Shown here: piece by piece, positions 44,078-45,186 of the stretch
Layout: every line of letters begins with the position of its first letter
Numbering within the stretch: position 1 is the first letter of the stretch
Source of the DNA: Bacteroidia bacterium
GTDB lineage: Bacteria; Bacteroidota; Bacteroidia; JADZBD01
Direction: 5' to 3'
Assembly: GCA_020054095.1 (NCBI GenBank)
Contig: JAGVMA010000025.1
Coordinates: 18,321-82,320, forward strand
DNA length: 64,000 nucleotides
Translations under genes and position numbers: made by a program
Notes under the pieces: generated by a model
Databases searched by the model: none
Told to the model about the DNA's origin: nothing
The model's input: only the letters and a program-made list of their open reading frames with translations

Positions 44078-45186
44078 TTAAAAAAACGATTGATACAATT
44101 CAATTAATTTATTCGCCTCGTTTGGCCAATTATATTTATTCAAAATCGCATTTCTTCCATTTGCACCTAATTGTGATGCCAATATATCATTCGCACATAG
44201 TATATTAATTGCCTCGGCAATTTTGTCTGCCTTTGTGGGATCAACACAAATGCCACAGTTATTTTTCTCAATAATTTCTTTCCAAAGTGGAAAATCAGAT
44301 GCGATTACCGGAATGCCAGCACTCATGTATTCAAACATTTTATTGGGTTGTGCATCAAAATGATTCGGTAATGGCAAAAAGGTTACAATTCCTGCTTTTG
44401 AAGACAACAAAATATTAGCTACTGACATCCTATCCACTTGCCCTCGAAAATCCACATTGTTCCACCCTGCAGAAGATTTTAGCTTATTTAAAAAAAGTAC
44501 AGGGGAAACGATTCCCGCTAAAATCAGTTTTACGTTTTTTGCAAAGTTCATTGCATCAACTAATTGTTCGCAGCCCCTAATATCATTTATAAGCCCGGTA
44601 AATGTAACTGTATTTGTTTTCAATGCCCAAGTTGATTCAGTGTAGAGTTCATCGAGCAATGGATAATTGTTGATATCGACAGTATTTTTATTGAGATGAA
44701 CAAACCTGTTTTTTATAAATGGAGTTGCGCAAACAATTGCGTTTAGTCTACGTGCGATGTAATTTTCATATTTTTCAAACAAGTATGAAATAGTTTTCCT
44801 TAGGTATTTATTTATCCAATACTTGGATAAAATTTGTCGAGGAACATCTTCGTGTGCATCGTAAATTACTATTTTACCTTTCTCTTTAATCGTAATGCAT
44901 ACTGTAATAACTCAGGGTCGTGAAAGTGATAAATATCCGCATCTACTTCTATTGCTTTTTTATAAACAAGTTTTGACGCGCGAAACATTCGTATGTATCG
45001 ATTTGTAACTAACGCATTTACACCAATAATATTTACACCATTTACTTGCTTAGATTCGCAGTTTACTGCAATAAGGTTAGTATCAAAGCCGGCAATAGCT
45101 AAAGAAGAACATTGCTTAATGAAAATACGCACATCGTTCCATTTGTGAGCAGATGTAAGGTGACAAATTTTTATTTTTATTTTCAA
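44078..45186 (-). pseudogene. Family 4 (GT-B) glycosyltransferase split by a -1 frameshift in an A-run near 44869..44880 (ORFs 44869..45186 and 44078..44878)
   Basis: N-terminal ORF ends ...ALRLKRKVK*. The downstream frame is open upstream of the track start and reads GKIVIYDAHEDVPRQILSKYW..., a continuous GT4 sequence if AAAG is read as AAAAG. Confidence 0.65.

Follow-up and report, generated by a model that had tools for sequence, protein, structure and literature searches.

Among glycosyltransferases of the GT4 family, solved structures include those of PglA (8dqd), BshA (6n1x), PimB' (3oka), WaaG (8b5s) and GlgM (6tvp). Naturally split enzymes of the GT-B fold also exist, those of the Alg13/Alg14 type being encoded by two ORFs, and natural splits separate the two Rossmann domains from each other at their linker. 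Loss of function in surface-polysaccharide genes is commonly selected by phage or grazers, or else reflects the decay of a pathway that is already broken. Small deletions in GT genes of LPS/CPS loci have been documented to make bacteria resistant to phages (PMC10269817). The gene that we describe here, which lies in a 64-kb stretch of metagenomic DNA (the window), can be compared with each of these. With one base restored, its product displays the same Pfam domains and the same fold as the solved GT4 enzymes listed above, although it is only 11-19% identical to any solved structure. Like Alg13/Alg14-type enzymes it occupies two ORFs, but its break falls inside the N-terminal domain and the second piece starts no earlier than residue 136. 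As in Klebsiella mutants that resist phages through deletions in GT genes or wcaJ (PMC10269817), a small deletion affects a GT gene in a surface-polysaccharide cluster and the intact allele is found in relatives; unlike in these mutants, the lesion in the window is known from the sequence of one metagenomic contig alone. Whether it is a pseudogene created by a frameshift or, with less likelihood, an error in the consensus, the feature lies in a variable surface-glycan locus and is of a kind already known. We think it likely that the window carries a real haplotype in which a Wzx/Wzy polysaccharide locus has very recently lost function. Mildly notable is only that the two changes by which it departs from an intact, otherwise identical haplotype are both inactivating.

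The initial annotation had reported a GT4 gene interrupted by a -1 frameshift in a short A run, and its position and open frames prove accurate to the base; the gene lies on the minus strand. As can be seen in Table 1, the first piece is a short ORF whose TTG start overlaps the stop of the HisF2-like gene upstream. It translates as MKIKIKICHLTSAHKWNDVRIF...HFHDPELLQYALRLKRKVK and ends at a TAG codon (44871-44869), its last codons being TTA CGA TTA AAG AGA AAG GTA AAA TAG, that is, ...LRLKRKVK followed by the stop. The -1 frame, which is already open upstream of this point, reads VITVCITIKEKGKIVIYDAHEDVPRQILSKYW... (also given as VITVCITIKEKGKIVIYDAHEDVPRQILSKYWINKYLRK...) and runs to a stop at 44080-44078. 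The missing A sits in the sequence GAG-AAA-GGT, and adding one A to this run makes the gene read ...LRLKRKGKIVIYDAHED..., so that the two frames are joined into a single 369-aa protein. In the window, GT4 is not one intact polypeptide, since the frame shifts after residue 103 and meets the stop at 44871-44869. The second piece begins with 32 codons devoid of a start codon; the earliest one available is a TTG at 44782, which corresponds to residue 136 of the intact protein, and the JGI gene call in this frame is 234 aa long. The 105-aa ORF and the -1 frame are thus two pieces of a single gene for a predicted GT4 glycosyltransferase of GT-B fold.

Table 1. Coordinates of the split GT4 gene, of the locus that contains it and of the overlapping same-species assemblies. 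Positions are those of the window.
Feature	Coordinates	Strand	Remarks
GT4 N-terminal fragment ORF	44869..45186	-	105 aa, TTG start at 45186
A3 run with one A missing	44879..44881	- (TTT on + strand)	A4 in two same-species assemblies
-1 frame, rest of GT4 (residues 104-369)	44078..44911	-	open from 44911
MBOAT (AlgI/DltB-like) O-acyltransferase gene with nonsense codon	40548..41966	+	codon 5 is TAA, 40560-40562
Seven-gene operon holding the split GT4 gene	42872..50156	-	starts and stops overlap or abut
Other arm of the locus	37681..40490	-	GT2 glycosyltransferase, DegT-type aminotransferase, Bac_transf initiating phosphoglycosyl transferase
Assembly L001 (SRR13608704), 5921-bp overlap	40511-46430		differs by the extra A and one substitution at 40561
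Assembly L008 (SRR13608725), 2369-bp overlap	44397-46764		differs by the same extra A only

The assignment of this gene to GT4, also proposed by the initial annotation, is borne out by profile searches, by a structural model and by structural comparison. Residues 29-164 of the repaired protein match positions 15-150 of the Glyco_transf_4 profile (PF13439) with 40.1 bits against a Pfam cut-off of 28.5 bits, in a match that crosses the junction unbroken, while the 105-aa N-terminal fragment alone scores 18 bits, which is below the cut-off. Residues 186-346 match the Glycos_transf_1 profile (PF00534) with 61-62 bits (cut-off 26.4 bits). The AlphaFold2 model of the repaired protein (pLDDT 91.9, pTM 0.85) exhibits two Rossmann domains in a GT-B fold, and the frame break falls within the N-terminal one, between a helix (residues 91-102) and a β-strand (residues 106-111). 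When this model was searched with Foldseek, it matched retaining GT4 enzymes, with E values of 1e-18 to 1e-12 and TM scores of 0.7-0.79, including GlgM, sucrose-phosphate synthase (SPS), PglA, BshA, PimB' and WaaG. The repaired gene is therefore predicted, from sequence profiles and from the model, to encode a retaining-type GT4 glycosyltransferase of GT-B fold. A PDB sequence search and NCBIfam gave the enzyme no specific functional assignment, its best NCBIfam equivalog score being 45 bits against a 400-bit cut-off.

The repaired protein has more than 7,000 homologues in the database search, and the way in which these cross the junction is informative. Among the 120 homologues listed, 118 are single polypeptides of 356-385 aa; of the other two, one is the 234-aa fragment of the window itself and one is a protein of 546 aa. 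The closest foreign match in the list is about 60% identical. At the junction, the sequence of intact family members is L(K/R)(R/K)xGK(K/I)VIYDAHED, and this is how the -1 frame of the window continues, as the initial annotation had maintained. Residues G104, K105, D110, H112, E113 and D114 are invariant in an alignment of 15 of the listed homologues. The same picture emerges from 80 metagenomic homologue loci, every one of which covers residues 90-120 by one uninterrupted match. D110, H112 and E113 are kept in all 80 of them, and G104 in 75. Homologues encoded naturally as two polypeptides had been named as the finding that would overturn the frameshift, and not one of the 80 loci is split at the junction. 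We therefore rejected a naturally two-piece GT4, in view of these unsplit loci and of the position of the break inside the N-terminal domain. Nor would a functional split enzyme be expected, because the break lies within the N-terminal Rossmann domain and ahead of D110, H112 and E113.

The intact allele could be found in other assemblies. A 369-aa protein (P0122) encoded by L001, the Logan assembly of SRR13608704, was recovered as a 90%-identity cluster mate of the C-terminal fragment, and it is 100% identical to the repaired GT4 protein. The A4 allele that had been expected from the family, GAGAAAAGGT, is literally present in both L001 and L008, while the window has GAGAAAGGT; the comparison with related strains that the initial annotation had suggested thus yields two same-species assemblies in which the gene is intact, and the missing A is the one it had deduced. 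The 105-aa and 234-aa products are confined to one contig, the one from which the window is taken, a 137,782-bp record that is the same at NCBI and at JGI (metagenome 3300038435, Ga0394682_010277). An exact-pattern scan for either allele, A3 or A4, in the GTDB species genomes and the JGI metagenome collection returned no match; the species is without a representative in these sets. The arginyl-tRNA synthetase encoded in the window (ArgRS, 19546-21426) has a best match of only 57% identity among 185,579 GTDB species representatives, and the records that match it best are named almost entirely Bacteroidota. The source is thus placed, by this marker, in a deep-branching Bacteroidota lineage with no close genome among the GTDB species representatives. 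Further strains of the species are present in the samples, L005, L006 and L007 being 98.4%, 99.2% and 99.7% identical to the window, respectively, and strain diversity within these samples is, judging from their sequences, real.

The split gene is the sixth of seven in its operon, which encodes, in order, a 405-aa membrane protein, a Wzx flippase, a WbuX N-acetyl-sugar amidotransferase, a HisH-like protein, an AglZ/HisF2-like protein, the split GT4 and a Wzy_C polymerase/ligase-like protein. The WbuX gene scores 275 bits for TIGR03573 (cut-off 203 bits) and the AglZ/HisF2-like gene 363 bits for NF038364 (cut-off 310 bits), while the HisH-like gene matches the HisH model. The three genes directly upstream of GT4 are thus the same as in the WbuX/WbuY/WbuZ acetamidino-sugar modules of O-antigen loci. 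Such a WbuX/HisH/HisF2 module lies beside the GT4 gene in only 3-5 of 23 long homologue loci, and GT4 is for this reason not specifically tied to it. What the window and its GT4 homologues do have in common is a Wzx/Wzy setting, and one homologue locus (L094, contig Ga0155360_13) is fully syntenic. Together with its other arm, the polysaccharide locus spans 37681-50156 and has a G+C content of 32.4%, against about 37% in its flanks. From this gene content, we predict that the locus directs the synthesis of a Wzx/Wzy-dependent surface polysaccharide of O-antigen or capsule type.

A second lesion in the same glycan locus had been mentioned in the initial annotation, and it too is found. The MBOAT gene, which together with a partner gene encoding a 302-aa protein converges on the seven-gene operon, starts in the window as ATG CTT TTT AAT TAA ATT CAG, that is, MLFN, a stop and then IQFLFFFPIVTALYFLLPHKFRW... 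In L001, the only other assembly that covers this site, codon 5 is TCA (Ser) and the gene encodes 472 aa; the difference is a C-to-A substitution at 40561. Gene callers give the MBOAT protein 418 aa from a downstream ATG. The DltB profile aligns to the intact protein from residue 9. Either this 418-aa start or a restart at a GTG (residue 30) would be predicted to cost conserved N-terminal membrane segments. The GT4 frameshift and the MBOAT nonsense codon are the sole differences between the window and L001 over 5.9 kb.

Are these lesions real mutations, or was the A lost only when the contig was assembled or polished, for example in a low-coverage long-read consensus, with the organism's own 369-aa GT4 intact (A4) and functional? 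The initial annotation had left a choice between pseudogene and sequencing error, and that choice can now be narrowed: the evidence leans towards a real allele, which we regard as likely, and an artefact as rather unlikely, though it is the most serious of the competing explanations. An error of this type would account for the two independent assemblies that carry A4 and are otherwise identical to the window across the GT4 gene, for the restriction of the A3 allele to one contig, and for the density of lesions, as one frameshift per 64 kb fits a consensus error rate of about Q48. There are also hints of long-read runs in the data series. A nearby SRA accession, SRR13608742, is described as a set of long reads from soil (PMC12574318), and residual single-base indels are typical of long-read consensus and assembly (PMC9262707). 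The source contig may come from a long-read assembly, because SRR13608742 is long-read and because the contig numbers are not ordered by size.

The error, however, would have to be a peculiar one. The affected run is just 4 nt long, yet all 184 homopolymers of at least 5 nt agree in 13 kb of overlap, including 39 of at least 7 nt and runs of up to 9 nt or more, and the sole indel in these 13 kb is the A4 run of GT4. A model in which errors are driven by run length must therefore miss every one of the 184 longer runs and hit this one. The other difference in the locus, the C-to-A substitution at 40561, is not a homopolymer-type error, and a substitution that fell at random would be a nonsense mutation in about 5% of cases (5.4% of the possible substitutions in this stretch create a stop codon). 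Among the approximately 56 genes of the 64-kb window, none other is split or truncated when each remaining sizeable ORF is examined with Pfam or in the JGI and Logan gene tables, and 6.8 kb are base-for-base identical to another assembly. The nearly identical overlaps outside the locus (L004, L090 and L091) amount to about 10.4 kb and contain one synonymous SNP and zero indels.

A real A3 allele need not be a fixed one, since the run could act as a slipped-strand contingency tract in which the window has captured the "off" state of GT4. Glycosyltransferases that act on surface glycans are classic targets of phase variation, GT4 is one of them, and both an A4 (on) and an A3 (off) version of the gene exist. 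Contingency loci, however, require a run of roughly 7 nt or more, or short tandem repeats, for elevated slippage. A tract of A3/A4 is far below this length and codes for an ordinary conserved K-G-K motif with no expanded repeat, and the second lesion, in the MBOAT gene, is a point nonsense mutation rather than a tract change. We consider phase variation very improbable on these grounds. Even less probable, in our view, is that the frameshift is rescued during translation. The codons GUA AAA UAG permit perfect re-pairing of tRNA-Lys one base back. If the tRNA-Lys in the P site slipped by -1 on A_AAA_UAG, the -1 frame would continue as ...KIVIYDAHED and a full-length GT4 with a G104V change would result. 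There is, however, no X_XXY_YYZ heptamer at the slip site and no stimulatory RNA structure downstream of it (z = -0.79). Moreover, Val occurs at position 104 in none of the 80 homologues, and the GT4 gene of the same species is ordinary and unshifted, which speaks against a conserved recoding signal. If slippage by -1 does occur at this site, it would be accidental and at a low level rather than programmed.

If the lesions are real mutations, as we favor, their effect can be pictured as follows. Loss of one A from the A4 run would shift the frame after residue 103 and bring in a stop two codons on. Of the N-terminal Rossmann domain, the resulting 105-aa product would retain the first four strands and no more, and it would possess neither the invariant D110, H112 and E113 of the DxHED motif nor the C-terminal domain that binds the nucleotide-sugar donor. 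As this product would be without the motif and the C-terminal domain, and as the rest of the gene has no start before residue 136, the GT4 enzyme would be lost. Translation would end 790 nt short of the abutting Wzy start, and expression of the downstream Wzy-like gene would probably be reduced because the genes of the operon appear to be translationally coupled. The strain would thus most likely make a polysaccharide from this locus that is truncated, altered or unmodified, or none at all.

What brought about these losses can be suggested in outline only. Pressure from phage or grazers may have selected them, or the genes may have decayed after the pathway had already been broken. A more specific version, in which the two lesions mark an ongoing, selected loss of surface polysaccharide as an escape from phage or predators in a natural population, between samples of one study, is one that we put forward tentatively and hold to be doubtful. 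The statistical case for selection is weak, the statistic (p about 0.05) being derived from two differences only. If long reads were to link both lesions, and if their frequency shifted between samples, the dynamics of receptor loss would have been observed directly in the field, and in a lineage that is uncultured. As for annotation, the calls "hypothetical protein" (105 aa) and "glycosyltransferase" (234 aa) are best merged into a single GT4 gene marked as disrupted, and the MBOAT gene, called at 418 aa, is best marked as truncated. Real lesions would mean that the surface glycan of this strain is probably different from that of its near-identical relatives, or missing, a frequent finding that matters in phage-host and grazing interactions; errors would amount to a small quality flag on the contig. 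Either outcome leaves our knowledge of glycosyltransferases and of frameshifting unchanged.

Several other features of the window were recorded along the way. The lone SNP in these 10.4 kb of overlap outside the locus, seen against L090 at position 13457, is ACG vs ACA (Thr) and lies directly beside a G6/G7 run, in a gene (11243-14656, minus strand) for a 1137-aa PKD-repeat protein with a CHU_C (type IX secretion) domain. At about 56570, in the intergenic region that separates an ECF sigma factor gene from the L9 gene, an A8 run of the window corresponds to A7 in L005, L006 and L007, which also share a SNP 12 nt away; strains may differ here, or the homopolymer may be miscalled in the window. 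Within a TPR gene (52180-54063, minus strand), the segment 52840-53686 differs from L005 (SRR13608704) by about 60 SNPs in 850 bp, and the sequence on its flanks is nearly identical to L005; this pattern suggests recombination along the tract, or hypervariability in this part of the 627-aa TPR protein. Two further candidates for broken genes were rejected: 3917-6034 and 6003-7040 look like separate TPR-PD40-OmpA and TPR genes rather than one split gene, and the transketolase ORF, considered as a third lesion, is simply cut by the window edge. The gene at 3917-6034 (minus strand), which is preceded by that for the 345-aa TPR protein with a 32-nt overlap, and the one at 30617-32878 (plus strand) encode large paralogous proteins with PD40 repeats and an OmpA domain. 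Finally, a small mobile/defence islet (57988-63173) is located between the S6-S18-L9 ribosomal protein genes and the transketolase gene, and comprises a 963-aa MmeI/Eco57I-type restriction-modification enzyme, an IS200-like Y1 transposase (61031-61495), a RhuM-family protein (61787-62791) and a 129-aa ORF without a Pfam match.
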